A stretch of DNA of 51,703 nucleotides, counting the filler, from Catajapyx aquilonaris (taxonomy: Eukaryota): the NCBI GenBank assembly GCA_000934665.2. It is 2 parts of 2 records of this genome, joined end to end, with 100 filler letters (N's around TTAATTAATTAA, not from the genome) between each part and the next. Parts side by side here need not be neighbours in the genome. Positions count along the whole stretch, not along the records: positions 25,623 to 51,703 come from JYFJ02005356.1; 1 more part is not named here. One strand, given 5' to 3'. The notes under the pieces are model-generated. The model made no database searches. It saw only the letters and a program-made list of their open reading frames with translations, and was not told the origin of the DNA. Position 1 is the first letter of the stretch. Each line of letters starts with the position of its first letter. The translations under genes and the position numbers were made by a program. Positions 11,484 through 51,703 of this stretch are shown here, one piece after another.

Positions 11484-11782
11484 TATAGTACCAAGAGCTA
11501 ATAGCTCTTGGTATAGTACAGTATACCTGCCAAGTTCGAGCCGGGCAGGAGTACCGAAGGCGCAGACCACCATGTGAACCTCATAACCTTTGCAGCAATC
11601 AGGGAGAGGAACGATGTGGCTTATAGCTTATTTTTATTACGAATACAGGCTCAATTCTCAAACATAATACCTGTATGTTATTAGACTGCATGAGTTATAG
11701 AAAGTAAAATCTCTATGGATACAGGCTATTAAGGTTAGAATGAACCCTTTCCAGTGAAATGTACACAACTGTGCAATTTTAG

Positions 11783-13843
11783 GTCAACATGGAGACGTAC
11801 CCCTATGGACCTGGTGGCCGGAGGTCGACGTGGAGCCGAAGGACAGCATACTAGTGAACACTTATATTGCCTTCAGGAGCTTCTTAGTGTACCTTGGGCA
11901 GACGTAAATTCCACGGAGTCAATCCCTACCCTGTACGAAGCAATTTCAAAAGATTGGGAAGAAGGAACTGAGTTACTCATTAAAGAGTTTGCTGACCCTA
12001 AGGTTGAACATGAAGGACATCCTATCATGCACATTCTCCAGAGGACCTTCCCGAATCTAGTGCCACTGCTACACGACGTGTCTTTGGGGACATTTGTGCG
12101 GAAGAATCCATACGATCTTAAAACAGCATTGTTTAAGTCATTGTATCGACACAGACCTGATCTATTTGTGAACATCTTTGCAGATGCGGCTAAATTTAAC
12201 GTAGATCTTAACGCAACAGCAGGATTGTACACTTTGTTACAGTTGGCTGTCAAAAAGGGATTTCATGAATGTGTCAAGCTAATTTTAGACCACGGAGCTG
12301 ACCCTAATAAAGTATCCAGCGAATGTCCCACATATCCGTTGCTCATAGCTGCGAGTGCAGGAAATCATCAGATCATGGCATTGCTGTGTCAAAGAACAAA
12401 CACAGATTTGAAAGTAACTGATTTTGAGGGTCGCACTGTACTACACAATCTGGTGGAATTAGGAAGTATCATGAAAATTACTAGAGATATATACCCGTTA
12501 CTTATTAGTGACACCGGCAAAGATCCGGAGAAATGCATGCAAAAACTTTTTGACACGGTAGAATATCCCGAGTTCCGCTTGAATGTTAATGCAAAAGACA
12601 ACAAAGGCGACACACCGTTGCATCTGGCGGCTAGAAACGGCTGTTCAAATATGATTAAGTTGTTGCTCAGCAAAGGGGCATATTCAGCTATCATGAATGA
12701 TAAAGATCAAGTTGCCATAACAAGTATAAATCCATCTGTCCTGGAAGAATGGCTAGATGAATGTGTTACACTAAATGACAAATGTGTCTCACTCAATTTC
12801 CAGCTATTGGCACCAGCTGAAGAACAGGATGATCGACGTCGGCAACTCAAGTTCACTTTTCGTTCCAAGAACTACAAGACATTGGACAGTTACCTCCCCG
12901 AGACAAAAGTTTTATGGCACTTATCTAAATCACTTCTACACAAACATCTCCTGAAGCATCCAGTCATCACCAGTTTCTTGTTTCTGAAGTGGCAATGTAT
13001 TAGACTCTATGTGTATGCAAATATGGCCATATATGTACTGTACGTGTGTGCTATCACTTACTATCTTCTTGGATCATTTGGTAAAGGCCAAGATAATGAA
13101 GACGCGACCATTTTCCCCGGCAATCCGCTGTCGAACCATGGGGCCATATTGCTGCTAATTATGACTATGTTGTCCGTCATTCACGAAATATTCACAATAG
13201 TTGTGTCAGTGAAGCGTTACATACTGAATTTTGAGAACTGGATGGCCATATCCACCATAACAATGACCCTCTTGATCCTGTTTGCTCCCCTGGACAAGAC
13301 GACTAAGTACCACTTCGCCGTATTTGTCATCTTTCTCAGCTGGACAGACCTCTCCTTTTTCATTGGTCGACATCCCTACATAGCTATTTATGTCCGAATG
13401 TTCACAACCGTCACTGTCAATTACATCACATTTCTGGGTGCCTTTGTGTTCATACTTGTTGCTTTTGCTCTTTGTTTTTATTTGCTGTTCCACACTTGCA
13501 CGTTGCCTGAGGGCTGTGAAGATAAATCATTCCAAACGCCTTATTCATCTCTGATGAGGACCATGGTCATGATGACTGGTGAGTTCGACATGGATCAACT
13601 TCCGATGGAAAGACTTCCAGGAACAAGTCACGTCATCCTGTTGCTCTTTGTGTTCCTCATGGTGGTTGTGTTGTTGAACTTGATGAATGGACTGGCAGTT
13701 AGTGATACACAAGCCATAAAAGATCAAGCGCAACTGGTCACCTTGATTTCCCAAATTGAACTTATCTTCTACGTGGAATTAATGCTGCTAGGAAATCCTT
13801 TTAGGTTCTTGCAGAAAGGGATGACTTCCACGTGTTTTGGCAG
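11783..13843 (+). CDS. pain: TRPA channel painless-like, coding exon 3 (ankyrins, six TM segments, pore)
   Basis: Acceptor TTTTAG|G completes Arg (phase 2). Contains ankyrins (GDTPLHLAARNG), KHPVITSFLFLKW, pore MVMMTGEFD and LLNLMNGLAVSDTQAIK. As I recall, NGLAVSDTQ is the painless-type motif, while pyrexia/wtrw have VGLAV.DIQ. Donor AG|GTATGA. Confidence 0.93.
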
Positions 13844-13924
13844 GTATGACTAGAATCTATGTACTTGTTACTTCCGCTTCTCTTTTCTATTGCTCAAGAG
13901 TAATTTTATTGCTATTGTTTACAG

Positions 13925-24387: not shown

Positions 24388-24473
24388 TTATAGTATATGC
24401 TAACCCCGATGCTGAACTAAAATAGAAGAGTAGTGTATAGGTATCGAAAATCAGTAATGGACCTCAGCCTATA

Positions 24474-25048
24474 CAGGGTGGTCGGTAAATGGCACACAAG
24501 CTTCAGGTAGCGAGATTCCTTGTGCAAAACCAGTATATGGAAGTGAAGGTCATATTGCTCTATGATGCCTGGTTAGTGCTCACGAGGCCTCCAAAGTTTG
24601 GGCCAAATCATGACGTCACATCCGCCCGCGAAATTCAAACACTACCGTATCGCTGCCGTACGCGGTGTGCTGCTAGGCGTTGCCATGTTCACCAAACAAT
24701 GGAACCGTATAAACTCGCAGGGACGTTGCCAGGCATTGCCATACCGTCGTATAAACTCGCGGGGACGACGGTATGGCAACGTCCCCACGAGTTTATACGG
24801 TTCCATTGTTTGGTGAACATGTGGGGAATGTCAACATGGCAACGCTTAGCAACACACCGCGTACGGCAGCGATACGGTAGTGTTTGAATTTCGCGGGCGG
24901 ATATGACGTCATGATTTGGCCCAAACTTTGGAGGTCTCGTGAGCACTAACCAGGCATCGTAGAGCAATATGACCTTCACTTCCATATACTGGTTTTGCGC
25001 AAGGAATCTCGCTACCTGAAGCTTGTGCGCCATTTACCGACCATCCTG
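24474..25048. mobile_element. Tc1/mariner-type MITE, near-perfect 575-bp palindrome
   Basis: TA|CAGGGTGGTCGGTAAATGG...CCATTTACCGACCATCCTG|TA. This explains the mirror ORFs 24489+ and 25033-. Confidence 0.9.
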
Positions 25049-25050
25049 TA

Positions 25051-25098
<48 letters not shown>

Positions 25099-25622: not shown

Positions 25623-27048
25623 AGATAAACGCGTAATCATCCGAAAAAGGCCACCTCTAGCTCAAGGACACGCGCCAAGGCCCATATTGCTTGTTTAAAA
25701 GAGGGAGGAATGACCTTGCCTTGACAATTCTCAAAATGCAGCTACTAATAATCTCCCTTGCATTCACACGTGTTTATCTCTCTCTCTCCCCCCTCCCCGC
25801 TTACCACCACCCAAAAGACTCCCACCATCGCCCCTTCCTCGCCTAATCAGCACCCCCCCTCCCCCCCACCGATGAAAATTCGAGCACGTGTCATAAGGTC
25901 GCGGGAGGAAAGCTGTCGAAGGCACTCGCCCAAATCACCTGCACCTGGCACACTGATTGGCGGGAGAAAAAGTCGCGGACGATTCCATAACAGTCCGATA
26001 ATCTTTTTGACCGTGATAGTACACTGTATGGTTACGCCTGGAATCGTCTGCAAGCAACTGACCAGCGTTCCAGATATTTTTCTCTTTGGTCATAATGAGA
26101 TGTCCTGGAGAACCGCAAGTTGCACTAATTTTAGTTCAGTCTCTTTCCTAGGTTCTAAGAATGTTCGAAGTTAGGGGGCAGGTAGTAAGAGGAGGGTGAA
26201 AAAAATAATAATGAGGTTAAGTGGGCTCATACAGTCGATCCGACTCCGACGTCCACCGAATTCGACCATCGACCGGTCTGTGTAAATGGCATTCCGTGTC
26301 AGAGCCAGGCAGGCCAGCTCAAGTCACCCAGGCAGTGTCGGAGATGAGGCAAGACGTTGGATTGACTGTGTGAATGACTGTCCGACTCATCGCAGCTCTC
26401 TGATTAGCTACTGCGGTCTTCTAGTCGAACTCGACGCCCCCCCACACCACCTTCACCTCCACCTTTTTTTAGTAAACAAACTTTGCCCCCACCCTCAACC
26501 TCAAACAAGTCCGTTTTTCGTCTAATAATATACTACATTATTATCATATGGGGTGGTGATAATAAAATTGATCGTGTACTTACAGCTATCATAGAAACGC
26601 CAAATTTAGCATAAAAATAGGTTGCGGTCTGGGACACTAGTGAAAAGTCCGAAACAGGATGATTCTAGATGGTGGGCATTTCAAGACTTTAAAAATTCGT
26701 AAATCAGCCATTATTGATCGCAGAGACATAATGCAAACTGATCTGAAATCTTCAAAACACGGGGTACTAATTAATATATAAACATTAGGAATCGGACATC
26801 TTGATTCCAGATGGCAGCTTTTTAATAACTTTAAACAGCCATTATTAATTCCTTAGGTCACTCGGAACGCATAATGACCAATCATTTTGCATGAAATTTG
26901 TTTTTAACCTCGGGGCAGTCAAAAAAACCAAATTCCTCGAAATATAGGGGTCATTCCGAATCAAGTGGGCCTAAATGTTGCTCGGCCAACTCGGATTTTG
27001 CTTAAAATAATCACAGCTTACATACACAACTATGCCATAGCTCTGCAA

Positions 27049-27676
<628 letters not shown>

Positions 27677-28130
27677 GGAATGTGATGAACACCTGAAAAG
27701 GTAGCTAAGCTGTAAATTGCAGCAGTGCAAGGGGTTGGGTTTGGTAGGAGGGGAGCAGTGATGTATTTAGGTTTTTGCCGCCCCTATGCATAACCTTATC
27801 TGCCCCGTTTCATGGCTGATTTTTATTCCGAAATTTACCGATTTCAAGACCAAATATATCGGAAATTGTTATTTCAAAACATTTTGAATTTTGGTAATGA
27901 ATAGTCCTACTAGTACCAAAATCCAGGGAATTTCATATTGGGGTTTACACTTTTTAATGCAGATCCAAGTGAATCGGCCGATGCGCAGACCAGTAAGGGC
28001 GAAAGTCGCGTGTAGGTCCTGCACAGAGCCCCACGGAACATACCCTTTCTGTTGATCAATTTCCTTGAATTATTTATTGAACATCTGTTGAACAAACATT
28101 TCATCTGGCAAGACCTCTAGTCAGGAAGTA

Positions 28131-30401: not shown

Positions 30402-31736
30402 TCATCTGTGCCTTCTAACAACATGAAGTTTCAAAGTACCTGACCGACTAAACTTTTTCTTGCAAACCTGACATCTGTATGGCTTCTCCCCTGTATGGGT
30501 TCTCATGTGAGTATTGAAATTTCCTGACGCACTAAACATTTTCTTGCACACCGGGCAACTGTATGGCTTCTCCCCCGTATGGGTTCTCATGTGAGTATTG
30601 AAATTTCCTGACGCACTAAACATTTTCTTGCACACCGGGCAACTGTATGGCTTCTCCCCCGTATGGGTTCTCATGTGTTTATTCAAATTTCCTGACATAG
30701 TAAACTTTTGTTTGCAAATTATGCAACTGAATGGCTTCTTACCTGTGTGAGTCCTCATGTGGTTATTGAAACTTCCTGACTGACTAAACCTTTTCTTGCA
30801 AACCTGGCAACTGAATGGCCTCTCCCCTGTGTGGGTTCTCTTGTGTTTATTCAAATCACCTGATCCACTAAACTTTTGTTTGCAAATTATGCAACTAAAT
30901 GGCTTCTCCCCTGTGTGGGTTCTCATGTGTAACTTTAAATTTCCTGAAGCACTGAACTTTTTCTCACAAACCTGGCAACTGAGTGACTTCTCCCCCTTGT
31001 GTACAAACCTCACATGCTTATTCAAATATTCTGTTAGACTAAACTTCTTCTTGCAAATCTGGCAACTGAATGGCTTCTCCCCCTTGTGAACAACCCTCAC
31101 ATGCTTATTCAAATTTCCTGCTAGACTAAACTTCTTCTTGCAAATCTGGCAACTGAATGGCTTCTCCCCTGTGTGGGTTCTCATGTGGTTATTCAAAGTT
31201 CCTGAGCGACTAAACGTTTGTTTGCAAATTATACAACTGAATGGCTTCTCCCCTGTGTGGGTTCTCATGTGTACCTTTAAATGTCCTGACTGACTCCACT
31301 TCTTCTTGCAAATCTGGCAACTGAATGGCTTCTCCCCCTTGTGAACAAACCTCATATGCTTATTCAAATATCCTGTTAGACTAAACTTTTTCTTGCAAAG
31401 CTGGCAACTGTATGGCTTCTTATCTGTGTGAAGCCTCTTGTGGTTTTTCAAAGTTCCTGACTCACTAAACTTTTTCTTGCAAAGCTGGCAACTGAATGGC
31501 TTCTCCCCAGTGTGCACCCGCATGTGGTTATTCAAATGTCCTGAAAGACTAAACTTTTTCTCACAAACCTTGCAACTGTATGGCTTCTCCCCAGTGTGAG
31601 TTCTCATGTGAGTTTGCAAATTACTCCAGTGACTAAACTCCCTCTTGCAAATATGACAAACCTGCCTCCCGAAGTGTCTCCCCTTGTGCATGTCTTGCTG
31701 GGTCCCGTTCTGGATGTTGTCTTCAGTACCCTTCCC
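30402..31736 (-). CDS. C2H2 zinc-finger gene A, last exon (15 tandem fingers)
   Basis: Acceptor TTTCAG|GGG, phase 0. Fifteen CxxC...HxxxH units with TGEKP-type linkers; TGA stop. Confidence 0.93.
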   Translation of the reverse strand, partial: GKGTEDNIQNGTQQDMHKGRHFGRQVCHICKREFSHWSNLQTHMRTHTGEKPYSCKVCEKKFSLSGHLNNHMRVHTGEKPFSCQLCKKKFSESGTLKNHKRLHTDKKPYSCQLCKKKFSLTGYLNKHMRFVHKGEKPFSCQICKKKWSQSGHLKVHMRTHTGEKPFSCIICKQTFSRSGTLNNHMRTHTGEKPFSCQICKKKFSLAGNLNKHVRVVHKGEKPFSCQICKKKFSLTEYLNKHVRFVHKGEKSLSCQVCEKKFSASGNLKLHMRTHTGEKPFSCIICKQKFSGSGDLNKHKRTHTGERPFSCQVCKKRFSQSGSFNNHMRTHTGKKPFSCIICKQKFTMSGNLNKHMRTHTGEKPYSCPVCKKMFSASGNFNTHMRTHTGEKPYSCPVCKKMFSASGNFNTHMRTHTGEKPYRCQVCKKKFSRSGTLKLHVVRRHR

Positions 31737-32395
31737 CTGAAATAAATGCAAGTGTACATGAAGGGAGATGTTGGGACATGGTTTTACAATCACACAAGAT
31801 AATTACTCAGGCATTTCATCTGCAATGGGCCACCTTTTCCTTTCATGCTAGCTAATTATCAATACAAGAATTCTAGCAGGATTACTTTTGCAGTGGTCCA
31901 CCATAATATTTAGTGTTGCTGGAAACAATTACCAGCATAACATGGGACTTCCTGAATGAAGATATCATAATTGTAGCAGTTATGTTAACTGCTATTTACT
32001 TGTACTAAGCCACTAAGGTTATTTTCTCCACCTACAGTTTTACGGCAGCAGCAAAAAGAAACACCGGAAAACAGTGCATAATAATAATTTGTGTATTTTA
32101 TTTCACCTTTTAATTGATCAATTTATTATTCAGTGTCTCAAGTAGGATTCAGTCTAGAGGATTGCAGTTATGTCACCTCCTCTGCCACTCAATATTTCAT
32201 TTGCTGTGCTCTTGCTCTGGGAATCAGTGTTTGTTTCCCCTCCACTGCAAATTATATGGCTACGTTATGACAGCATTTCGAAGTTGGACACAATATACTA
32301 GTACCTTTATAATCTCTACAACTTTGATGCATCATGCACAACTGTCTCTTGGATTGAATACATTGCATAATACATAATGTCATAATGATATACTG

Positions 32396-32740
32396 AAAAT
32401 ATGGGGCACATTGTGAGAGACTGCAGGGTAATGAGGGAGGAGAGGAGGAATGGATACCGGCAGTGGAAGGGATGGAGGATGAAGAGGTGTATGGGATTGT
32501 AAAGAATGTAAAAAAAAGGGGAGCTCTGTGTAAATATTTGTATGGTATGGTGAAAAAGAGGAGGGATGCAATTTTGGAAAGACAGGGGGAGGGGTTGAGT
32601 GAGAATGGAAGTATGTAAATGCAAATGTAAATGGAATTATGTAAATGTAAATATAATAAAGTGAAGGAGGAGGAGGGTCGCCCAAGCGGCATGTACTGCA
32701 GGCCGACAAAGGATAAATAAAGAAAAAACAAACAAACAAA
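32396..32740 (+). mobile_element. 5'-truncated non-LTR retroelement 3' end, in an intron of ZF gene A
   Basis: 15-bp TSD CATAAYGATATACTG (32381-95, 32741-55), AATAAA plus (AAAC)n tail, and ENMGHIVRDC zinc-knuckle-like remnant. Absent from copy B. Confidence 0.8.
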
Positions 32741-32967
32741 CATAACGATATACTGGCTGGCACACACCCTTATTCAGACCATAACAGGCCTTTCTCTGTG
32801 ACACAAGTTCCAAGCCATCACTTCGTCAGCACAGAGCATTTTCAGACTCTCTGCCTTAGCTCACTGATTACGGTTTACCCAGATTGAACAAATTCTACCA
32901 TTCATTCAAGTTATTAGCTCTTGATTCAATTCATTCTTCAATTAATAAATAGGTACAGTACCATACT

Positions 32968-33093
32968 CTGCCGTCCCGCGGAAAAAAGCAGTATCAGCAA
33001 AACCGTTAGTCGACTTTCCAGTGCTCTAGCACTCTAGCAGTAGTCACGGACTAACGGTTTTGCAGATACCGTTTTTTTTCTGCAGGACAGCAG
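32968..33093. mobile_element. Small hairpin MITE, specific to copy A
   Basis: CTGCCGTCC...GCAAAACCGTTAGTC pairs with GACTAACGGTTTTGC...GGACAGCAG. Confidence 0.65.
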
Positions 33094-33190
33094 TACTAGT
33101 GACTAATACAATAGACACTGGTTTGATTTGAACCTAACTAAAGTAACTTAACCTAACTAAAAGAACTAACACATTGATATATTGCTTTAC

Positions 33191-33313
33191 CTGAAGCTCT
33201 GGATAAATGTGCTTCTTCAACATGTGCAATTCCAGGCCCTTCTTTGTGGCAAATGCACCGTTGCAATGGGCACAGTAGAGAAGCTGGTACATCAAAATGA
33301 AGGGTTCCAATAT
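33191..33313 (-). CDS. C2H2 zinc-finger gene A, middle exon (single finger)
   Basis: Acceptor TTGCAG|ATA and donor CAG|GTAAAG, 123 nt, phase 0/0. Translates YCAHCNGAFATKKGLELHMLKKH. Conserved in copy B. Confidence 0.85.
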
Positions 33314-33552
33314 CTGCAATGAGAAGATGAAAAATTGACCTTACAGATTATAATTAACAATGAATGATCTAACGTGATGCCAAAACACTGCATATCAAGT
33401 TTCAGCCAAATTGCGAAATACCGTGGGGAGGAAAAATGACGCGAAATTTTGAAAATGGGGCCTTTTTCGGATAATTTGTTTCAATTATTGGATGGTCAGT
33501 TATCGGAAGTGGTCAAAACCCAATCAACATATACAGGGTTTGGACAAAATAA

Positions 33553-33757
33553 TCCTAACCATGGTTTTCTGTGGTTTCCCACGATCCCCCAAGGAGAATT
33601 CCGGAATTGCTTCCTAAATAATATCCCACAGCCGCTTCCTTCCATCCCTATCCCAAAAAGCATGGTAAAAATGGAAGCAAAGAGTTCCAGTCAACACTAA
33701 ATTGGGATGAACTCCCTCCCCCCCAAAGAGCCGCCGGCTGATAACGGGGTATGAATT
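33553..33757 (+). mobile_element. SINE body fragment (third family)
   Basis: GGTTTTCTGTGGTTTCCC...CCGCTTCCTTCC core resembles that of common insect SINEs; the 3' end TGATAACGGGGTAT resembles the family A tail. Confidence 0.5.
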
Positions 33758-33815
33758 ATATGAAAATAGTGTGATAAGATGACTCTGGATATAACAGCCT
33801 CAGCTTGAAAGGTTA

Positions 33816-35053
33816 GGCCGAGCGCAAATCATGCAATGAAGGTGCGACGTCGTCCCGATTTGTTGCATCAAGACAGGATGCGCGCACGCAGCTGGCAAGT
33901 GTATCTCTACCCACTTTCGAATGACGTCAGAGCGGGCAAACCACCCGCTTCAAGGCACTTGCAAGCGCACGTTTTGCTCCAACCCGCTGCTTTGAGAACG
34001 GACCTTTAGGCACATTGCACACCCGGCTCAAATCATGCAATTTCGATGCGATCTCAGGCACGGAATTCCAGTTCAGTACTCCATCATTTTAGCCACGTAA
34101 TAATGCTCACAGTTCATGAATGAGGTCATTCTTGATCACTGTTTGTGTACTATCCACGTTCCATGGGCAACCGGTACTGGTACGATGTCACCGGTACGTC
34201 ACATACTTTGGTACAGTATAGCCTAGTATTTACTCATTGCCAGCAAGTCACAACATTAGCACTGGGGCTCCCGAACACTCGTAAGGCCCCCAGGCAACTG
34301 GGCAGGTTGCTCTAAGTTAAGGGGGCGCATTAGCAAAAAAATACGGTAACAATCGGTAACAATGCGAGCCCTTGGCAACCACGTAAACAAACTCGTGTAT
34401 ATGCATGGGCAGCATATGGGGATTCGACATGTCTACGCTTCTGCGGCCGTACGGCTGCAAAAATGGGGCAATGGACACATAAATTACACCAAAAAATAGG
34501 ACATGATCTGGTTCAGGGCACCTTCGTCGTCATTTTACAATTTTCGGCCTAGAAGTGACCTTTTCATCTAGTTGAAGTGAAAGGAAAATGCCGTTCCCGA
34601 GAAGCCCATTTGAATAACATGGCGGCAGGAACGCGACAAAGTCGGGAACGCTTCTGCGCCCGTATGTCCACAATTTTAATGGAATCATATCGAGTATGGT
34701 ACCATAGTGAAGGCCAAACCTTTGCGCAGGGCACCTTCGTCGCGATTTTTTCGATTAACCGTGTGTTTCGCCACAAAAAATAAAATTCCCTCAAAAATGC
34801 GCCTACCGTATTTTTACTAATGCGCCCCCTTTAAGGCAGCCCTCCTTACAACAGTCTGTATCAAACATTCTCCGAGATTCACTCCGACCTGGGCGCCGCC
34901 ATGTTGAAAATTAAATGCGATGTGAGGGAGTTTTCAAGCAGTGCTGGAAACCTGCATCATCCCTGCGACTTTGCAGGTAAGCGGCGGGTGCATCCTTCGC
35001 ATGCAACCAGCTACTGCAACATAGCACCGAAATTGCATGATATGCGCTCAGCC
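33816..35053. mobile_element. PIF/Harbinger-like non-autonomous element
   Basis: TTA|GGCCGAGCGCAAATCATGCAAT...ATTGCATGATATGCGCTCAGCC|TTA. Confidence 0.8.
34321..34830. mobile_element. Kolobok-like MITE (TTAA TSD, purine-starting termini)
   Basis: TTAA|GGGGGCGCATTAGCAAAAAAATACGGTA...TACCGTATTTTTACTAATGCGCCCCCT|TTAA. Confidence 0.75.
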
Positions 35054-35245
35054 TTAGCCCCAGCTTACTCCCATAATATGGCCTGCGTATCTGGCCATAA
35101 AATTCCCAATCCCTTGAAGTCTGTTATATCCTGAGTCTTCCACTAAAAATGACCATGAAACAATGAAATTGATTCTTGAGTCCAGTCTTTCAGTCTGTTA
35201 CAACTGTTGGCACCCGAGTTCTCATCCCATCATGCCCAATCTCAC

Positions 35246-35569
35246 CTGGTCCTGTCTTCCTCCGTCTCCACCCCCTGACGTCTCCTCCTCCCTGTCTGGA
35301 TGAGCCTGTCCGCTGTTGCCCTCCTCCTCCTCCTTCCGTGGCTCCTCCTTGACCCTCACCGTAGTACCTCTTCCTGCCTCCCACCTTCTCTTGGCCTCCT
35401 CAGTGTTGAAGGTGATGGTGGCCGGCTCCACTGGCTCCTCCTGGACCTCCACCTTGACCCTGTCCCACCTGGAGTGAGTGAAGCTGTGCGCCATCAGGTC
35501 AATCTTCCTCTTGAACACCCTGTTGGGGCATTGGGTACAGGGGAACCTGCCCAGTTTAAGCATCTCCAT
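35246..35569 (-). CDS. C2H2 zinc-finger gene A, probable first coding exon
   Basis: GCCATGG start, finger-like FPCTQCPNRVFKRKIDLMAHSFTH, and VKVE/VKEEP motifs. Donor CAG|GTGAGA is phase 0. Predicted product ~593 aa; the frame stays open upstream, so the start is uncertain. Confidence 0.72.
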
Positions 35570-38500
35570 GGCTGATGGGACGGGGGATGGGTGTCTCCTC
35601 GGGGCACTCTCCTCTAACTCTGCCCCTTTGTCTGGAGACCAAGTCCCCCTCCTCCTGAGACCCCAGAGCAGGCAGCAACAATCCTCCTTCCAACCAGACC
35701 TCGACAACACGTCGTAACAATCAGCAGGCTTCCTTCCCAGTTTCTCACAAAGACCAAAAAGACAACCCGATCCAGAGAGTTCCCCTTCCCTCCGCCACGA
35801 AGGGTGGTTGTGGCGCCACTGGTTGGAATCCACTCCACCTTAAGACTCCACCACGCGTGACAGCTGAGGACATCTGACGGGGAAAAGACGCAACCATCCA
35901 CCAACGCCTCTTATTTAAAACAGGATACCCGGCTTTTCCATTGCATTGGAGCGCATTGGAGTGACTCATTGATTTGGTAGTTACCTTTGAAGTAATTAGG
36001 GCCATACAATATTGGCATACTTGTAACATGGAGCATATTGCATGTGCATGAAGTCCAATCAACAAACGGAACCACTCATTCCAAAAGCACCGATAAGGAC
36101 TCGGTTCAAGAATGTACCATGACACAGGTCTTGTCGTCCTGACCCATGCACTACACGTACGTACAGTCTACAGTGTGACAGTGTCAGGAGTCACACCGCA
36201 TCATGTGGGACAAAGCAGTTACATAATAGCAAGAACTGAAGAAATAGGTGCTGTAGGCCTAAATGTAACATTGTGGCAGTAGCTTCAAATACGATGCATT
36301 GCATCCTCTCGTAGTACTGGACAAACCCGAGAAATTGCAAGTCAAGGCTACACCCAATTCATCAGCCTATTTAAAATGGGATTTGACATCCTGATGAAGC
36401 ACCGAGATGAGTGTCACGGTACTGGGTGACAGTAGGGCGGTTCCATTTCAGATCAGCCGGTGAGTGAAAAAAGGTGTCAGGTCATAGTCATCGATTTTTT
36501 GGGGGGGGAAAAGTATATGTGAAACCCACATCCAATCGAAGTCTTATGGATCAATCAGTTTCACGAGATTAAATTTAGTTATCGAGATATTAATATTTCT
36601 TTCAAGGGGCACCAAAATCACAATCACCGGAAGATGCACTTTTTCCATTGCTTTCAATGAGTACATTTCGGGAACTGTTCTGAAAACCAACATGAAATTT
36701 TAAATTCACGATTTTGGAATAATGCACTGTTATGTAATCCATAAATGTGCCTTATTTAATGGTACAGTCACCTTCCAAAAAATCTCCAATCTTGCATATT
36801 TTGGGGAAAATGCGCATATTTCGCAATTTAATACACCGTCATGGTAAACGTGACGGTTGTGCTGATTATATTTTGTGATAATACTCGGTGACCCCTTACA
36901 GGTTATGAAATAAAACCTTCGTTAGCTCGGCGTGTAGTTGAGTGTGACCCGAGCGGTTGGATCACACGGAAGAATAACGCAGTGGGTATGTTCAAGTACA
37001 ATACTTATTTTATTTGGCTCGTGAGGCGATAGGTACGAAATGCAAAAGGTGAACGGTAGTAACGGAAAGAGAGTGAGGAATGTCCAGAGGAGCGGTCCGA
37101 CCAAGTGCCTGGATATTCTCCTGGGCAGTGCCGCAGTGGGCACTGGCCTCGAGGCTCGAGTAGTGGGCCATCATAGCTAGAGGGTGGCCAACTTGGAGGA
37201 TGTTTTTTTATTGGCTACGGCCGTCACGTGGGTTATGGACGCCATGTTTTGTCGTCTCGGACCGCGGGAATAGGCGGCCCCAAATCCCAAATCCCAGACC
37301 AAGGCTAGTTCCCCATTCCTGTCCGTCGTTTACGCTACTAAAATCAAACAATGCATTGTATGTGGCACATTCTACAATCACACTGCTGTGAACAAACTGG
37401 CATTATGGGGCATATTCATAACATAGTGTTGTTCTGAAGATACAACACAAAATGTTGTAACCGAGGTTGTAACATTGGTGGTAACACTGGCCGTCTTTAA
37501 TGCATTTGATTTCTGCTGACCTATTAACTTATGTTTTTTGAAAACAGTCACATATTTGTATAATTGAAGGGGTCGGTGCAATACCGCCCTAACCCACCAA
37601 ATGACACATATTGAGTTAAGCACACTTCCATGTACTACACTCATGTATCTAATATAAGCCATTGAAATTGTGCAGTTTCTGCCATCGGTCACTGAGAAAT
37701 AAAATGAAATAAGTCACATGGTATATGGGATGTATATGGCCTCTCAAACTTTCAACTGCAGTTTTCTCAAAATCAGGTTTGGGAGGGTTAGGGCAGGATT
37801 GCACCGACCCCTTCAATGGGGAAGTAGCCTTCATTTTAGAAACTACATAATAAATTCGCCCATATTTTTTTGATTTTTTTGGCGTATTCCGTTTTAAGAT
37901 ATCAGTTTCAGTTCCGGAGTAATTGGCGTTTTTTCGTAGGCAAATGGTGACGTCACTGTTTGCCTGGAAAATGTTGACGTCACGCGAAGTGAAATGAACG
38001 CAAAAATGATGTTATGGAACGCGCCCCGTCATTGTTGTAAAATGCTTCGCTGTTGTCAGCAACCAGCTCACGGACACTTATACTACGTTCTGGCGTTATC
38101 ACCTGCCGAGGGATTACGCACCGGGTGCCCACTTGAGATCGCTACGAGACATTTCCCAAGGCTATCATGTGGCGACCCTACCGGACTAAGGCTGAACTTT
38201 ACAGGTACGAAGGGGAGGGCTACATTGGGGGGCCCAACATGTTGGGCCAGCATGTAGGCGAGTTTGCATCGGACTTTTCGTCGGACACGTAATCAGTTAG
38301 TGACCCATTGCCAATGAGGGGTAAAAGTTTCGTTGCTTTTATTGGGGGGGGGGGGAGACAGAGCNGGGGGGGGAGACAGAGCGTGAAGTAATTTATGATG
38401 GGGGTCCTCTCCCAGTTTCTTTATCCGGTACGGCGCGGCGCGGCGCAGCCAAAATTGTCTGGTTGATGCACTTTATGGACGATCTGAACCTTGTAGTAGA

Positions 38501-43320: not shown

Positions 43321-44403
43321 TCACTTTTCTCCTTTGTGCATTCTAACAACATGATCTTTCAAATGTCCTGACTTACTATACTTCTTCTTGCAAACCTGCC
43401 AACTGAATGGCTTCTCCCCCGTATGGGTTCTCATGTGCTTATTCAAATTTCCTGACTCACTAAACTTCTTCTTGCAAATCTGGCAACTGAATGGCTTCTC
43501 CCCAGTGTGGGTCCTCATGTGGACATTCAAACTTACTGAATGACTAAACTTTCTCTCACAAACGTCGCAACTGAATGGCTTCTCCCCTGTGTGCACCTTC
43601 ATGTGTATATTCAAATGTCCTGACTGGCTAAACTTTTTCTTGCAAACCTTGCAACTGAATGGTTTCTCCCCTGTGTGGGTTCTCGTGTGTTTTTTCAGAT
43701 CACCTGATGCAATAAACTTCTTCTCGCAGACCTGACAACTGAATGGCTTTTCCCCTGTGTGGGTTCTCATGTGCTTACTCAAATGTCCTGACTGACTAAA
43801 CTTTCTCTCACAAACCTCACAACTGAATGGCTTCTCCCCTGTGTGGGTTCTCATGTGTCTATTCAAATGTACTGTTAGACGAAACTTTTGTTTGCAAATT
43901 ATGCAACGGAATGGCTTCTCCCCCGTGTGAACCCTCATGTGGTCATTCAAACTTCCTGAAATACTAAACTTTTTCTCGCAAATCTGGCAACTGAATGGTT
44001 TCTCCCCAGTGTGGGATCTCATGTGTATATTCAAATGTCCTGACTCGCTAAACTTTCTCTCACAAACCTGGCAACTGTATGGCTTCTCCCCAGTGTGAAC
44101 CCTCATGTGTGTATTCAAACGTGATGACCCCCTAAACTTTCTCTCACAAACCCTGCAGCTGTATGGCTTCTCCCCTGTGTGGGTTCTCATGTGTGAATTC
44201 AAATGTCCTGACGTTCTAAACTTTTTCTCATAAACCTGGCAACTGAATGGCTTCTCCCCAGTGTGGGTTCTCATGTGAATTTGCAAATTACTCCAGCAAC
44301 TACACTCCCTCTTGCAAATATGACAAACCTGCCTCCCGAAGTGTCTCCCTTTGTGCTTGTCTTGCCTGGTCCCATTCTGCATGTTGTCTTCAGCACCGTT
44401 TCC
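43321..44403 (-). CDS. C2H2 zinc-finger gene B, last exon (12 fingers, two with a lost Cys)
   Basis: Acceptor TTTCAG|GGA, phase 0. Finger 2 reads CQVY and finger 12 reads WQVC. Paralogue of gene A. Confidence 0.92.
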   Translation of the reverse strand, partial: GNGAEDNMQNGTRQDKHKGRHFGRQVCHICKRECSCWSNLQIHMRTHTGEKPFSCQVYEKKFRTSGHLNSHMRTHTGEKPYSCRVCERKFRGSSRLNTHMRVHTGEKPYSCQVCERKFSESGHLNIHMRSHTGEKPFSCQICEKKFSISGSLNDHMRVHTGEKPFRCIICKQKFRLTVHLNRHMRTHTGEKPFSCEVCERKFSQSGHLSKHMRTHTGEKPFSCQVCEKKFIASGDLKKHTRTHTGEKPFSCKVCKKKFSQSGHLNIHMKVHTGEKPFSCDVCERKFSHSVSLNVHMRTHTGEKPFSCQICKKKFSESGNLNKHMRTHTGEKPFSWQVCKKKYSKSGHLKDHVVRMHKGEK

Positions 44404-44604
44404 CTGAAAGAAATGCAAGTGTACATGAAGGGAGATGTTGGGACATAGTTTTCCAATCACACAAGATAATTGCTGGGGCATTTCATGTGCCATGGACCAC
44501 CTTTTCCCTTCATCCTCGCTAATTTTTATTAAAAGAATTCTTGCAGGATTACTTTTGCAGTGGTCCACCATAATATTTAGTGTAAGTTATTTCTAATAAT
44601 ATTA

Positions 44605-44747
44605 CGGTATTGTATAAAAAATAGAAACTCATACAGTATTTTGCCTAATTGTACTGTATTCCCCGTTTGTTTCCCCACCCGCCTCGCGATATGGGCGACA
44701 TCTATATGCCAGATAAAATTGTAATCGCCGGATCTTCAAAATTCAGC
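44605..44747 (+). repeat. 143-bp direct repeat, left copy (right copy 47421-47563)
   Basis: The two copies read identically and flank the Sola1 element. Confidence 0.95.
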
Positions 44748-45103
44748 GGTCAAAGCAGTAACCAGACATGTCACATTTTTACAACTTTTCAGGAGGAACA
44801 AAAAACTGTATAAAAATTTGGTGTTAAATAATATGAAAATTCCAATGTGGCAAAAGCAAGATTATACCCTAACAAACATTTTAGTGTCGTATTTAAAAAT
44901 ATTGCTTTGTTAATATAGGAGATATGGCGGTTTTGTTTTGGACATGTCTTTTTTCTTCACTGACTGAAGTTTCAGTCTTAGAGATAATAAATTTTATTGT
45001 CTCTTATTTGAAACATGTGAGGGAAAAGAAGTAGAAAATAGACTCCCTTGCTATTATTTAATGAATTTCTGAATAATAATACATAAAAATGCGCACAGGA
45101 AAA

Positions 45104-46546
45104 TCACGCTTTCAAATTTTGATACACATTCTGGTGGATGAGAGGTACATATCTTCGAACCAGGTTCTGCACATCTTTCAATTTGTCTCCCTTGATTGGC
45201 AGGTCCTCTGAATACATGGGCTTGTTAGGGAAAGACACCGTCACACGCGGTTTTTCAATAGCAAACCTGGACATCAGGGCATCATGGTCCACGTATGTCT
45301 TCCCAACTGACACTTCTGTGGGATGTGCAAAGCTGTAGTGCAGCATTTTAACAGACATAAGTTTAAGTTTTTCTTTGACCTTGTTAGCGACTTGTTTTTT
45401 CATGATTGTTAGAAAATGAGCTTGGAAGTCAAAAATCATATCCTGATCTACCTGTACCACGTGAAAGTGGTTCTTGCGGCGAGCGCTTCGTATGATGTTT
45501 ATGTATTCGGCGGGTGTGTAGATTCGTTCCTGTCGGGACACAGCCCTCTCTATGGCCGCGAAATCAGCATCGCAGGGCATAAAAGAGTGTCCACGCACAG
45601 GGAAAAAATGTTTCACTATTTTAAAACGGCCAAGCTTCACCAGAGAATAAAAATATGCCATAACTGTTCTGTTCCTGTTCTGGCCTGTGCATGCGTCAGA
45701 AAAGACATAGATAGTTTCAACCGATTTTGAAATGACATGTTCGAAGAAATGGTGCAGACACGACACTACCTCATTAGCCCCGTGCTTTGCGATATTTTCT
45801 GTCCAGCAATACATATATCCCTTCTTTTCGTGGCAAACATGTATGTTAAAGTTGTAAAACCACAGCTGTCGCGAGTAAAATACCTCATTAACTGGTAATT
45901 TGGGTAGCGGCAGGTTCTTCTCAAAGTCGAAAACAATCGTAGCGACTTTACTATCCTGTCGTGCCAATTCTGTACAATTTTTCATAATCTCGTGAAACTT
46001 TTCGGCCTGACGTAGGTGCAACTCTTTTTTCTTAGCGATCTTTCCCTTACCCTCCTCAGTGTCTGCTTCATCTAGCAACTTTACGTATTGGTCACACTGA
46101 GAGCAAGTGTCTGTGTGTGGTCTGCCAAAGTAGTATTGAAAGTGGGTGTTGAAATACTGGAGGAAATACTTGTACTTGACAATAGGATTACACTCGCGGC
46201 CGGATGTTTGCAACAGGTACATATCTGGCTCATACTTGTGAAGATACAAATCATACATCTTACGGACGTTGAGATCCGATGCCAAATAGTACTTCTTATT
46301 TTTCTGATTTCCTCGAGTGTAATGTGACACCTGGCGTGGAAACGACCTTATGTGGATGTCCATTTGCCGAAGAATGTCGTCGGCGATTGCGTTGGCCCTT
46401 TGCCGGTGTTTCCCACGGTTATCAGATGGGAAAGTTATGTGATCCATGGAATATTTGGCCAGCCTCTCCGTACGGGATTTGTTAATCCCGTGAAGGCTAC
46501 AAAATGCTGTCTTGCAGACGATGGTCTCCGTATTGCCAATGCGAAT
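45104..46546 (-). CDS. Sola1-type transposase, exon 2 (catalytic domain)
   Basis: Acceptor TTCTTAG|ATT, phase 0. Motifs VCKTAFCSLHGI, DNRGKH, SHY, DTCSQCD, FDFEKNLPLP, FSDACTGQNRN and GHSFMPCDADF (candidate DDD triad). Spliced product 632 aa. Confidence 0.9.
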   Translation of the reverse strand: MRIGNTETIVCKTAFCSLHGINKSRTERLAKYSMDHITFPSDNRGKHRQRANAIADDILRQMDIHIRSFPRQVSHYTRGNQKNKKYYLASDLNVRKMYDLYLHKYEPDMYLLQTSGRECNPIVKYKYFLQYFNTHFQYYFGRPHTDTCSQCDQYVKLLDEADTEEGKGKIAKKKELHLRQAEKFHEIMKNCTELARQDSKVATIVFDFEKNLPLPKLPVNEVFYSRQLWFYNFNIHVCHEKKGYMYCWTENIAKHGANEVVSCLHHFFEHVISKSVETIYVFSDACTGQNRNRTVMAYFYSLVKLGRFKIVKHFFPVRGHSFMPCDADFAAIERAVSRQERIYTPAEYINIIRSARRKNHFHVVQVDQDMIFDFQAHFLTIMKKQVANKVKEKLKLMSVKMLHYSFAHPTEVSVGKTYVDHDALMSRFAIEKPRVTVSFPNKPMYSEDLPIKGDKLKDVQNLVRRYVPLIHQNVYQNLKA

Positions 46547-46665
46547 CTAAGAAACGTCATGAAAAAGAACTCAGATATAATATTTATTTACTATAGTTAC
46601 AATGTAGGGCCATAAAATATTATGGTAGAAGTGGTAAGGTAAAATATAAAAATTGAAAAATGTAC

Positions 46666-47121
46666 CTTGTAGTGGAAAGTTGCTGACTTGTCCTTGCGTC
46701 CTTCATCTTCGTTCAATCGGGGCCGCTTCCTTACCACAGGTGACGGGCGTATGAGTCCGGTGAGGTGAGCATCTTGTTTTTCTTTGTCACCAATGCGCAA
46801 GAATGTCTGCAGAATAGCAGTTCTATCCTCTGCCGAGACTCGTGTCCAACACTGTCGCCTACATTTGCACGGCGGGCCTGTCACCACAGCAGGAACACTT
46901 TTTCCACTCCAGTTCAGGTATTCTTCCCCCGATGCACGCTTTTTCTTGATAACATTACGCCTCCAGCTCGATGGATTTCTTGCCCTCTTCCTTCCTTTGG
47001 TCACCTGAGTCTCTGGTTCAGAATCAGAAGTGCTACTTCGTGTGGCAGGAGGCACGTAATCACTTCCTTCACCATCTTCAGAACCGGAGGATATATCACT
47101 CACGTCCTCGGCGGCAGCCAT
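46666..47121 (-). CDS. Sola1-type transposase, exon 1
   Basis: ATG 47121, basic NLS-like KGRKRARNP, CKCRRQC. Donor AAG|GTACAT, 456 nt, phase 0. Confidence 0.85.
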
Positions 47122-47420
47122 TTTCTTAGCGAGAGTGTCACGCGGTGGTGGCGTCCTGAACTACATACTACGAACATGTCCACTACATCCAAATTTGATT
47201 CAGTGCAGTAAGAAGGTAAGTCCAGTTTATATCTGGTTACTGCACTGAATGAGCTACTCTGTGGCCATTTCTTAGCGTTAGGTATCTGATTTTTGCCCAG
47301 AACGGTGGGGGATTTTTTTTTTCCAGTAGTTTGGGATAAAAAAGTCAATTTTGACGAATTTGGACATGTCTGGTTACTGCTTTGACCGTATGTATTGACC
47401 GGTATTGACCGGTATTTGAC

Positions 47421-47563
47421 CGGTATTGTATAAAAAATAGAAACTCATACAGTATTTTGCCTAATTGTACTGTATTCCCCGTTTGTTTCCCCACCCGCCT
47501 CGCGATATGGGCGACATCTATATGCCAGATAAAATTGTAATCGCCGGATCTTCAAAATTCAGC
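47421..47563 (+). repeat. 143-bp direct repeat, right copy
   Basis: Identical to 44605-44747. Confidence 0.95.
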
Positions 47564-48941
47564 AAAGGTCATCTCTGCAAGTGTTACCGTCTTTGAATTA
47601 AAAAAATATGCGCCATGACTTTTGACTCAACCCTCGTATTTACTTGTCCTGAGGACATTTTCTCCACCTACAGTTTTACGGCTGCAGCAAAAAGAAACAC
47701 TGGAAAACAGTGCGTAGCTAATAATAGTTTGTGCATTTTATTTCACCTTTTAATTGATCAATTTATTATTCAGTGTCTCAAATAGGATTCAGTCTACAGC
47801 AGTGGTTCCTAACCTTTTCGTCATGAAGCCCCCCTTTTCGTTTTCACCAAACACTCAAGCCCCTCCCCCCTCCCCCCCCCCGGTCCCAATAAATTTCAGC
47901 AAGTTTCTAGAAAGATATTTTTATAACTGAGGAATGAAAACATATCGAAATAGGGGGAACAACAGAAGGGCTGAGAATTTTTTGGGGGGTTCTAGGTCAC
48001 ACAAGTTTAGGTGAATGTAGCTGACAAAGTACAGTGGAATCCTCCTATACTGTAAGCACATCGGATACATGCAAGTACAAAAGTCGGTCCCCTCATATTT
48101 CCAGCAGCGCCAAGCAGAAGCATGTTACATTCTTTTACTTATTTCATTTGCTGTGCTCGTGCTTTGGAAACCAGGGTTTGTTTCCCTTCCACTGAAAATT
48201 ATTTGTCTAAGTTATGACCGCATCTCAAAATTGGACACAATACTATACCTTTATAATCTCTACAACTTTGATGCATCATGCACAACTGCCTGTTGGATTT
48301 AATTTCAATACATTGCATAATGAGTAACGCTGTGAAATACTGGTTGGCACACACCCTTATTCAGACCGTAGCAAGCCTTTCTCTGTGATACAAGTTCCAA
48401 GCCATCGTTCCTACGAGCACAGAGCATTTTCAGACCCTCTGATTATGGTTCACTCACATTGAACAAACTTCTACCATTCATGCAATTCATTCTTATTCCA
48501 CTCATCCACTGCAATAAATGGGTACCCTACTTCCTACTATAACTCTATAAGCGACCAATACAATAGACACTGGTTTGATTATACCTAATTGGACATAAAA
48601 TGGCAAATGTAACAATTTCTTGGGAGCAAATGCAACTCAATCTTATAAAAGCACCGGATCTGTTGAAACTTCGGTCACCGTAGGGTTTGTTGACCCAGCT
48701 CAAAGTCCAAATACTATTTCGTAGCGTTGGTCTCGATACTTATCGTGAAATAATGACGCAACCCCCCAATCCCCATTCAAATACATGGGGTTGGATCGGG
48801 TGGATAGTGGCACCTCCAAGTGGAGAGGTGGTGAAACTATAGTGTGTATAACTATTGTGACTTTGGAACTTTCTACTAATCATCTGAGTCTTAAATGTAG
48901 ACGATAAATCTGGAACAATTATTATACTGTATTGTTATTAA

Positions 48942-49224
48942 CCCTGGAACCATGCCGTGGGGTCTTTTTGGACCCCAAGGAATTAAAATGCATTAAAATG
49001 ATAATTACAATGAACTTTTGCCAATTTTTTTACAGTATATAATAGGAAGTGCATGTTTATTTTCAATTAGCCATCATTTTAGGCATTGTTCAAAGAATGC
49101 TTGTTTATAGTCAATACATTGAAAAGTATTATATAAAAATCAATACAAATTAATAAATGGATGGGGTCCGCAAAGACCCCATGGCACGGTTGCCGTAACT
49201 TTCAGGCACGGCACGGTTCCAGGG
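48942..49224. mobile_element. piggyBac-like MITE
   Basis: TTAA|CCCTGGAACCATGCCGTG...CACGGCACGGTTCCAGGG. The interior is homologous to ~38600-38693. Confidence 0.75.
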
Positions 49225-49683
49225 TTCCAATAAAGAAAATATGAAGAACCACGCAAGAAAACATAGAAAAGCATAATTCAGCTTGATCTCTGTTCGGACA
49301 TGTTCGAATTCCCACGTGATGTGGACAGGTCTGGCTCCCTGATTCATGCCGCCATTTTGAATCAAATGCTGGCTCGGAAGGATGAAAACTGACCCGCAGC
49401 ATCAGGTACTTGCTACCAATGGAGGTCAAAACACTGGCTGCGAACACAAGAACAGGCTTGCATGAACCACCGTGGTCTTTCCTGCTCGGTACGCTCAATT
49501 ATTAAGATCCCACTATTGGATACAAGATGGCTGCCAGATAGGGGGCTCCTCAAACATGATATCAGTCGTAATGATCCTATCACTTGTGACCCAACGGCAA
49601 AGTTTCACTCCATCCTTTGACTGTCTTCGAAGGAACTCTTTAAACCTAACTAAAATAATTAACACATTGATATATTGCTTTAC

Positions 49684-49806
49684 CTGAAGCTCTGGGTTTA
49701 TGTGCTTCTTTAACATGTGCCATTCCAGTCCTTTCTTTGTGGAAAATGCACCGTTGCAATGGTCACAGTAGAGAAGCTGGTACATCAAAATGAAGGGTTC
49801 CAATAT
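49684..49806 (-). CDS. C2H2 zinc-finger gene B, middle exon (single finger); first exon probably beyond the window
   Basis: 123-nt phase 0/0 exon, YCDHCNGAFSTKKGLEWHMLKKH, with the same splice sites as 33191-33313. Confidence 0.85.
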
Positions 49807-50425
49807 CTGCAATGAGAAGATGAAAAATTGACCTTACAGATTATAATAATTATTAACAATGAATTATCTAACATGATGCCAACTCCAGTGGAACAGAATC
49901 ACAAGGCATAATTGACTCGGTGAAATCTAACCAAACCATCCAGCAGGAAAATTAAGCATGTTCCTGTGCTAGTGTCAATTTTGACACCACCACTCTAGTC
50001 TAGATACACAGACCGGCGTGGCTGATTATTATCTGGTCTAACGAATTAACGGGTGTTCTTGGATAATCGGACATCACGGACAATCCGAAAATGGTCCTTG
50101 AGATCCTGAAAATGAGCTCTTTAAAAAATCTTAATGAACTACTGTACATTCTGTATGGGACTGTATGCTAAGGATTAATCAAAATAACAAAACTTCCCAT
50201 AGATTTTCCATATCTTGTAGAAAAAATCCGTTAGATTTCTTTACTTGCAAGACATTGAATTTTTTTCAGACTTGGATTTATGTTCTTTCGTTTTGGCGGT
50301 GCACGGATAATCCACACCCGAATAATCGGGAATACAGTACATGTCACTTATTGGAGCTGACGCTATTTCCTGCAATCAATCTAGTATAAATTAAGGTGTT
50401 GGCATATTGCATTCATTCCCTATAG

Positions 50426-50650
50426 CAGTGGTTCCCACCCTGGGGGTCGCGAAGCCTTTTCAGGGGGGGTCGCACGTGGCTGCGGTTATTTTTATAAATT
50501 TAAAAATGACTAATATTTAAAAATTAACAACATAAATTTTATAGGAAATTTCATTACGAACTTTTCAACACCTACTAACGCTCGGGGGGTGGGGGTGGGG
50601 GGGTGGGGTCGCAGGTTACTTGACTCATAAAAGGGGGCCGTGACCCAAAG
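50426..50650. mobile_element. hAT-like MITE remnant
   Basis: Starts CAGTGGTTCCCA with GGGGTCGC subterminal repeats. A similar CAGTGGTTCCTAACC start lies at ~47800. Confidence 0.55.
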
Positions 50651-50885
50651 CAGCACTCCGCCTCCCCTATTCCACAGTAGTTATATTGGTTACATCACAC
50701 ATACTAGTTATAACCAATATTACTATCATACTACCATAGTTACATTGGTTATATCAGACATACTGGTTACATTGGTTACATCACACAAGTTATAACCAAT
50801 GTGCGTAACATATAACTACCGGTACCGTAATAACCATATAACCAATATAACTCAGTTATATTGTCATACAGGTTTATTGGTTACA

Positions 50886-51101
50886 CAGGGTGTTCGAAAT
50901 TCGTGGGTAGGTTTTTATAACTGATATCGCCCGATAGTAGTTATTTTTGTGGCTTGTTGTGCTCCATTTTACTCCCAGGGGGTCAAATAAAGCAATTGCT
51001 ATAGAATGGGTCACCTGGTTAGCGGCAGAACAAGCTACAAATAACAACTAATATCTGGCGATATCAGTTATAAAAACGAGCCACGAATTTCGAACACCCT
51101 G
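50886..51101. mobile_element. Tc1/mariner-type MITE
   Basis: CAGGGTGTTCGAAATTCGTGG pairs with CCACGAATTTCGAACACCCTG. Confidence 0.8.
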
Positions 51102-51192
51102 TGTATCCATCATACTGGCTATAACCAATTTAGCAATCATACTAGCTATATTGGTTATATTAGCCATACTATTACATTACATTAGCTATATA

Positions 51193-51703
51193 CAGGGTGT
51201 TGCAAGTTCGTGGGTCACTTTTCTTATGACCAAATTTGGTATATCGTCGTAATAAAGGTGCCCCCCGACGAAGAAACTGCGTGGGGCGTTCGAAGACACT
51301 TCCGTGGTAGCTCCCGCCGAAAATGTACCCGGACCAAAAGTGATCAGTATAGTGTCCAAGTGAAGATTTCCCCACTACAAAACCGACTGCAAGTCACTTG
51401 CGGGACCCCTCAACCTGCCTGCAACTTGTGGCTGCAAGTCTGCAATCTGCAGGCCGACTTGCAACCTGCAAGGGTGTTCGTTTTCGCTCCCTCCCGCAAA
51501 CCGCAGGTAACCCAGGTAACGTAAACACTTCGGCGGCTGCAACTTTCCAGGCGGGCGTTCATTTTGCAGCCCTAGGGGCGGATTCTCGTGGACTTTACGG
51601 GAGGCTCGCAAGTCGCAAACGCCCGTATCGCCCCGGCAACTAAAAAAAACTCCCGAAGTGGAATTATCGTGTCGCGCTCCCGCAAGGGTTGCGGGAAGGA
51701 AAG
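51193..51703. mobile_element. Left part of another CAGGGTGT-ended element, running off the window
   Basis: TA|CAGGGTGTTGCAAGTTCGTGGGT, similar to the 50886 terminus, with internal TGCAAG/TGCAAC repeats. Confidence 0.55.

Follow-up and report, generated by a model that had tools for sequence, protein, structure and literature searches.

We report a DNA transposon that lies in sense orientation within the last intron of a C2H2 zinc-finger gene of Catajapyx aquilonaris (NCBI GenBank assembly GCA_000934665.2). The gene, which we call gene B, was found in a stretch of 51,703 nucleotides, referred to here as the window, that is composed of two parts joined by 100 filler letters; gene B lies in the second part (positions 25,623 to 51,703, from JYFJ02005356.1). 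The transposon is probably a recent and apparently autonomous DDD-type element, which carries the DUF7869 domain and most likely belongs to Sola1, and its presence in the intron would reflect a parasite insertion rather than an evolved fusion between host gene and transposase. As far as can be read from the sequence, the locus is most likely an ordinary recent intronic insertion, which acts at most as a partial gene trap with by-product transcripts. The first-pass annotation had proposed that this intronic transposase, lying on the same strand as the host gene and in the same splice phase, could give rise to a host-transposase fusion, here at its earliest stage, or serve as a gene trap for gene B, and the arrangement is compatible with either. 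The coordinates, the strand and the phase-0 splice sites of that proposal all hold when checked against the sequence, the open reading frames and the splice dinucleotides.

The transposon spans 2,642 bp on the minus strand (44747..47388) and is bounded by perfect terminal inverted repeats of 26 bp. The 5' repeat (47363..47388) is 100% complementary to the 3' repeat (44747..44772), and these are the only two matches of the 26-bp sequence in the whole window, where none is expected. The transposase gene is composed of two exons, both on the minus strand. Exon 1 (47121..46666) starts with an ATG, encodes 152 codons with a basic stretch and a conserved C-x-C-x3-C motif, and ends at the donor AAG/gtacat (here and below, the slash marks the splice junction). 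It is followed by an intron of 119 nt (46665..46547; GT...AG, phase 0) and by exon 2 (46546..45104), which adds 480 codons up to position 45107 and a TGA stop, and hosts the catalytic core with the three aspartates D359, D436 and D478 (numbering of the spliced protein). The resulting transposase is 632 amino acids long, with a frame that is open throughout. We consider the transposase intron genuine, because in 81 of 120 homologs one continuous stretch of the best alignment with the spliced protein spans the exon junction, so that the two are colinear across it. No gap occurs at this junction (FHYK/IRIGN) in an alignment of 27 sequences. The acceptor of exon 2 (ttctttttcatgacgtttcttag/A) and the acceptor of the host gene each have pyrimidines at 14 of 18 positions. 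Two poly(A) signals are found in the 3' untranslated region of the element (44993..45062, minus strand), ATTAAA at 45062 and AATAAA at 44998, located 42 and 106 nt past the transposase stop.

Exon 2 matches the Pfam family DUF7869 (E 5e-15), and the same domain is present in all 50 aligned relatives of the transposase. The three catalytic aspartates are invariant in both the 27-sequence and the 50-sequence alignments, and the copy in the window retains all 26 invariant columns of the latter, aspartates included. At least 90% of the 27 aligned sequences share the cysteines C85, C87 and C91. When exon 2 was used as a query against the protein database, the closest relatives were at most 45% identical and the named ones were insects; no product of the same species was found in this search, in which the best match shared 45% identity. 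Taken together, the perfect inverted ends, the open frame and the retained DDD triad suggest that the transposon is apparently still autonomous and mobile.

Two observations weigh against this interpretation of the locus. The first is that, of 120 columns conserved to 90% or more in a set of 26 more distant homologs, 24 differ in the copy in the window, which counts against full intactness and makes full activity of the transposase presumptive; none of the 24 columns is a catalytic aspartate. The second is that the 4-bp target duplication expected of a Sola1 element is missing, since the flanking letters are cata and ctga and do not match at any shift of the ends, so that ordinary transposition is only a presumed route of arrival.

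To place the catalytic core and the exon junction within a protein fold, we relied on the predicted model of a homolog of the transposase (P0019, mean predicted local distance difference test score, pLDDT, of 83.2), with structural mapping done by secondary structure only. A sequence search of PDB returned no matches. With Foldseek E values of about 1e-3 to 1e-2, the P0019 model weakly matches the cores of IstA, TnsB, Mu and retroviral integrase, and it aligns with the foamy virus integrase core with a probability of 1.00 and a root-mean-square deviation of 4.9 Å over 157 columns. These weak matches are in keeping with an RNase H-like transposase. The junction between the two exons corresponds to residues 125/126 of the model and falls within a confidently predicted β-strand (120-128, pLDDT about 93), inside a predicted N-terminal module that spans about residues 57 to 160. 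Three conserved cysteines are encoded by exon 1 and a fourth by exon 2. Because the junction falls in the middle of strand 120-128, the module would be split in either of the chimeras that the first-pass annotation had envisaged (host exon joined to transposase exon 2, or transposase exon 1 joined to the host fingers), and each chimera would hold just part of it.

The assignment of the element to Sola1 is plausible, and we regard it as probably correct. Sola1 transposons are said to have been described by Bao et al. in 2009. According to two later papers, Sola elements have a DDD transposase, 4-bp target duplications, a length of 2-9 kb and inverted ends of 11-1124 bp (PMC10741241), and the hallmark of Sola1 is the AWWT sequence of the target duplications (PMC3845634). 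The transposon in the window shares with Sola1 the DDD triad in an RNase H-like core, the inverted ends, in this case a perfect 26-bp pair, a size within the 2-9 kb range and, as far as its relatives are named, insect relatives. It differs in that the AWWT duplication is absent and in that its inverted ends do not resemble those published for Sola1_NA. Its dimensions (2,642 bp and 632 amino acids) are close to those given for the Sola1 element of Megachile rotundata (2,778 bp, with an open reading frame of 630 amino acids), which is described as a single open frame (PMC3845634), whereas the copy in the window has an intron. The Sola1 label follows from a comparison of these features, and of the Pfam DUF7869 match, with published descriptions. 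DUF7869 (PF25273) was not mentioned anywhere in the literature searched. We also considered a link between DUF7869 and the bacterial ISAzo13 family, as in one Atlas cluster 11% of the members carry PF07592; this link was rejected, being unsupported by Pfam scans of the 50 relatives with E up to 1, and no paper linking ISAzo13 with Sola was found in the literature searched.

The host of the insertion, gene B, is represented in the window by two exons on the minus strand. The small exon (49806..49684) is 123 nt long and encodes 41 codons with one C2H2 finger; it is in phase 0 at both ends, with ttgcag/AT as acceptor and CAG/gtaaag as donor, and matches Pfam zf-C2H2 with an E of 5.6e-5 and 23.8 bits, slightly below the curated cut-off of 25.2 bits. 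The intron that follows (49683..44404) is 5,280 nt long, of the GT...AG type and in phase 0, and contains other repeats in addition to the transposon. The last exon (44403..43321; acceptor tttcag/GG) encodes 360 codons with 12 C2H2 fingers and terminates with the stop at 43323-43321. Its matches to Pfam zf-H2C2_2 (E 6.7e-88) and zf-C2H2 (E 6.4e-55), together with the tandem arrangement of the fingers, the TGEKP linkers and the open frame, identify gene B as a C2H2 zinc-finger gene. No product of the same species was found when the finger exon was searched against the protein database, where the best match shared about 61% identity.

Gene B has a tandem paralog in the window, gene A (30402..35569, minus strand), and the two form a C2H2 zinc-finger pair derived from an old duplication. 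Gene A is composed of exon 1 (35569..35246, 108 codons), exon 2 (33313..33191) and a finger exon (31736..30402), with all introns in phase 0 and with splice sites identical to those of gene B. Its exon 2 is 92% identical to the small exon of gene B. The finger exons of the two genes have diverged with a synonymous divergence (dS) of 0.52 and a ratio of nonsynonymous to synonymous divergence (dN/dS) of 0.33, values that are subject to the uncertainty of aligning repeated fingers. Exon 1 of gene A (35246-35569, minus strand) lies in DNA with a G+C content of about 50% and encodes a single C2H2-like finger and, after it, a strongly acidic stretch; the open frame of 205 amino acids that surrounds it (35222-35839) has no match in Pfam.

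The comparison with gene A also bears on whether gene B is expressed at all. If gene B were a promoter-less or decaying partial duplicate, the element would sit in DNA that is not transcribed, which would rule out any chimera. In agreement with this possibility, the two genes are similar only from 49882 onward, DNA and translated searches of the last 1.8 kb of the window (49883-51703) found nothing that corresponds to exon 1 of gene A, and two of the 12 fingers of gene B (fingers 2 and 12) are each short of one zinc-binding cysteine (C to Y and C to W, respectively). However, the first intron of gene A is about 1.9 kb long, and hence the first exon of gene B, together with its promoter, may sit past the end of the window at 51703. 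Moreover, the frame of 360 codons has stayed open despite the divergence from gene A, while just 9 of 2000 simulations at 10% random substitution left it open. Given this result and the dN/dS of the finger exons, gene B has been kept open by selection through most of its history, and we consider it unlikely that it is dead.

The insertion of the transposon, on the other hand, appears to be young, and far younger than the duplication that gave rise to genes A and B. In gene A, the last intron measures about 1.45 kb and has no counterpart of the region from about 47649 to 44583, so that the transposon is absent from it. In gene B the element is flanked by two direct repeats of 143 bp, one upstream (47421..47563) and one downstream (44605..44747), which are 100% identical and spaced by 2,816 bp. 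We base the young age on the perfect conservation of both the 26-bp ends and the 143-bp flanking repeats, in contrast with the divergence of the host paralogs. The downstream repeat abuts the 3' inverted repeat, and the upstream one lies inside an arm (about 47635-47476) that resembles a miniature inverted-repeat transposable element (MITE). A related MITE-like element is found elsewhere in the window (5123-5278 and 5359-5482), with inverted arms of about 130-155 bp, to which the arm at 47476-47635 in the gene B intron is similar. Outside the 5' inverted repeat, in the 32 bases that lead to the upstream repeat, there are also three extra direct copies of the terminal heptamer CGGTCAA with a 10-bp period (47392..47428, minus strand), which become four within 47382-47428 when the terminus of the element is counted; nothing comparable is present at the 3' end.

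The layout of the 143-bp repeats is not that of an ordinary cut-and-paste footprint. We considered a simple long target duplication as their origin, which may apply, although 32 bases separate the upstream repeat from the 5' inverted end. The repeats may also stem from an excised fragment that was captured at a staggered break, from a faulty gap repair or from an error of assembly. The last of these could extend to the whole locus, if the element and its 143-bp repeats were an assembly artefact or a rearrangement confined to a single haplotype, rather than a normal insertion. The complete identity of the two repeats, which lie exactly one unit of 2,816 bp apart, the absence of the 4-bp duplication and the short letters that the 3' junction shares with the upstream context of the repeat are all consistent with such an event. 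Both junctions, however, read through cleanly, and the MITE-like arm is the natural setting of the upstream repeat; we therefore regard this explanation as quite improbable.

The interpretation of the locus as a recent insertion leaves the question of what the element may do to the transcripts of gene B. The earlier proposal identified two chimeras that would require existing splice sites only, and both are in frame. Joining the small exon of the host to transposase exon 2 (49684^46546) results in 521 open codons, and joining transposase exon 1 to the exon with 12 fingers (46666^44403) results in 512, in accordance with the length of about 512 amino acids predicted for the latter. The first-pass annotation had also cautioned that the match in phase might be due to chance, and this caution is borne out: the four introns that we examined, two of gene A, one of gene B and one of the transposon, are all in phase 0, so that any same-strand insertion of this element into an intron of this gene family would match. 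The in-frame layout is therefore not beyond chance, which by itself would produce it about half of the time. In addition to the acceptor of exon 2, two phase-0 AGs occur upstream of the transposase ATG, with exon starts at 47160 and 47124, within 13 open codons. In principle, splicing at either position could fuse the host exons to the whole transposase of 632 amino acids in frame; the AG at 47160 has a poor pyrimidine tract.

Gene traps classically have an acceptor in sense orientation and, behind it, a poly(A) signal, as does this element. If gene B is transcribed, we expect the element to be removed with the intron in most transcripts. Some transcripts may be trapped instead, with the host donor at 49684 joined to the acceptor of the element at 46546, and would then end at the poly(A) signals of the element. 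The product of the trap would be a truncated host protein followed by the transposase without its first 152 residues. As judged from the splice sites and the frame, the 49684^46546 product is plausible under this condition. The 46666^44403 chimera is much less likely, because it requires the donor of the element to pass over its own acceptor at a distance of 119 nt, and the transcript to extend beyond both poly(A) signals.

This arrangement recalls PGBD3-CSB, in which a piggyBac element in an intron of ERCC6 reportedly traps the upstream exons. In both cases the transposon is intronic and in sense orientation, and with its acceptor and poly(A) signal it could end the host transcript early, as a chimera beside the normal mRNA. 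PGBD3-CSB is reportedly old, fixed, immobile and conserved, whereas the element in the window looks freshly inserted and mobile.

A second term of comparison is provided by the fusions between host genes and transposases that have been collected in tetrapods. In their preprint, Cosby et al. demanded RNA support at every junction and identified 94 independent fusion events (10.1101/2020.05.07.082677). DNA-binding domains accounted for 76.5% of the captured parts, and among the host domains KRAB was the most frequent (32 events; 10.1101/2020.05.07.082677). This is in line with the vertebrate precedent invoked by the first-pass annotation, as no genes in this collection have captured transposases more often than KRAB zinc-finger genes. 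The in-frame fusion defined by Cosby et al. exists at the gene B locus only as a possibility, deduced from the reading frames. The closest analogue is KRABINER (ZNF112 and mariner), which likewise derives from a DNA transposon on the same strand in the intron of a zinc-finger gene, with the transposon supplying the acceptor for an in-frame join. Fusions of the KRABINER type, however, are documented by junction RNA and by purifying selection on the transposase part, while the locus described here is known from sequence alone; their hosts contribute a KRAB domain, while the host part of gene B is an acidic C2H2 leader. They also differ in the position of the acceptor, which was just upstream of the transposase frame in eight of nine traced cases (10.1101/2020.05.07.082677) and lies here inside the frame, so that 152 residues are removed.

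In the light of these precedents, gene B might represent a nascent host-transposase fusion, with its finger exon alternatively spliced to exon 2, or to a cryptic phase-0 AG upstream of the ATG, to encode a stable chimeric protein on which selection is just starting to act. The compatibility of the frames would agree with such a fusion, as would the quality of the acceptor and the poly(A) signals behind it, and so would the AGs at 47160 and 47124, which would retain the whole transposase and reproduce the layout of the eight cases mentioned above. These features have to be weighed against an element that has perfect ends and looks mobile, a main acceptor that cuts a predicted β-strand of the N-terminal module, a frame match that is expected by chance and a gene B start exon that is not visible within the window. 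Furthermore, a search among longer proteins for products that combine DUF7869 and zinc fingers returned two matches, neither with fingers, which is weak evidence against a fusion. Altogether, we consider a nascent fusion very unlikely. A slightly lower probability still is given to its most far-reaching version, in which a fusion would be caught at birth in an arthropod, with a still-mobile Sola1-type element already spliced to the leader exons, at a polymorphic stage that precedes selection, as the first Sola-derived case. The word 'Sola' has no occurrences in the main text of the preprint (10.1101/2020.05.07.082677), the accessible part of PMC9783078 names no Sola-derived gene, and no Sola-derived fusion or domesticated gene was found in the literature searched, some of it accessible in part, which is weak evidence of absence.

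The reverse chimera, in which transcripts from a promoter of the element would skip exon 2 and join donor 46666 to acceptor 44403 to encode a protein of 512 amino acids, is extremely improbable: its frame is open and exon 1 would contribute the basic stretch and the conserved C-x-C-x3-C, but it requires the bypass of an acceptor at 119 nt in favor of one 2.1 kb further and the read-through of two poly(A) signals, the end of exon 1 interrupts a predicted strand halfway, and the donor AAG/gtacat has more deviations from the donor consensus than the host donor CAG/gtaaag.

Under the preferred reading of a recent parasite insertion, the locus provides what appears to be a clean and likely active DUF7869/Sola1-like element with a verified intron, as well as an instance in which 143-bp repeats flank a transposon where a duplication of 4 bp would be expected. 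Should chimeric transcripts be found, they would capture the first step in the recruitment of a transposase while the element is still mobile, a step that is inferred but rarely observed. They would also represent a case outside vertebrates, and in a superfamily for which no fusion is reported in the texts searched.

Three further features of the window lie outside the gene B locus. Positions 27041-27700 are occupied by about 650 consecutive A (T on the opposite strand), which represent a giant mononucleotide tract or else an oddity of the assembly. The region 24470-25052 forms a near-perfect foldback, with arms of 223 nt that are 96% complementary, a second inner inverted pair and near-identical open frames in both arms. 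Finally, a single open frame of 704 codons on the plus strand (11739-13853), apparently intronless, combines ankyrin repeats with an ion-transport domain and resembles a TRP-type channel.

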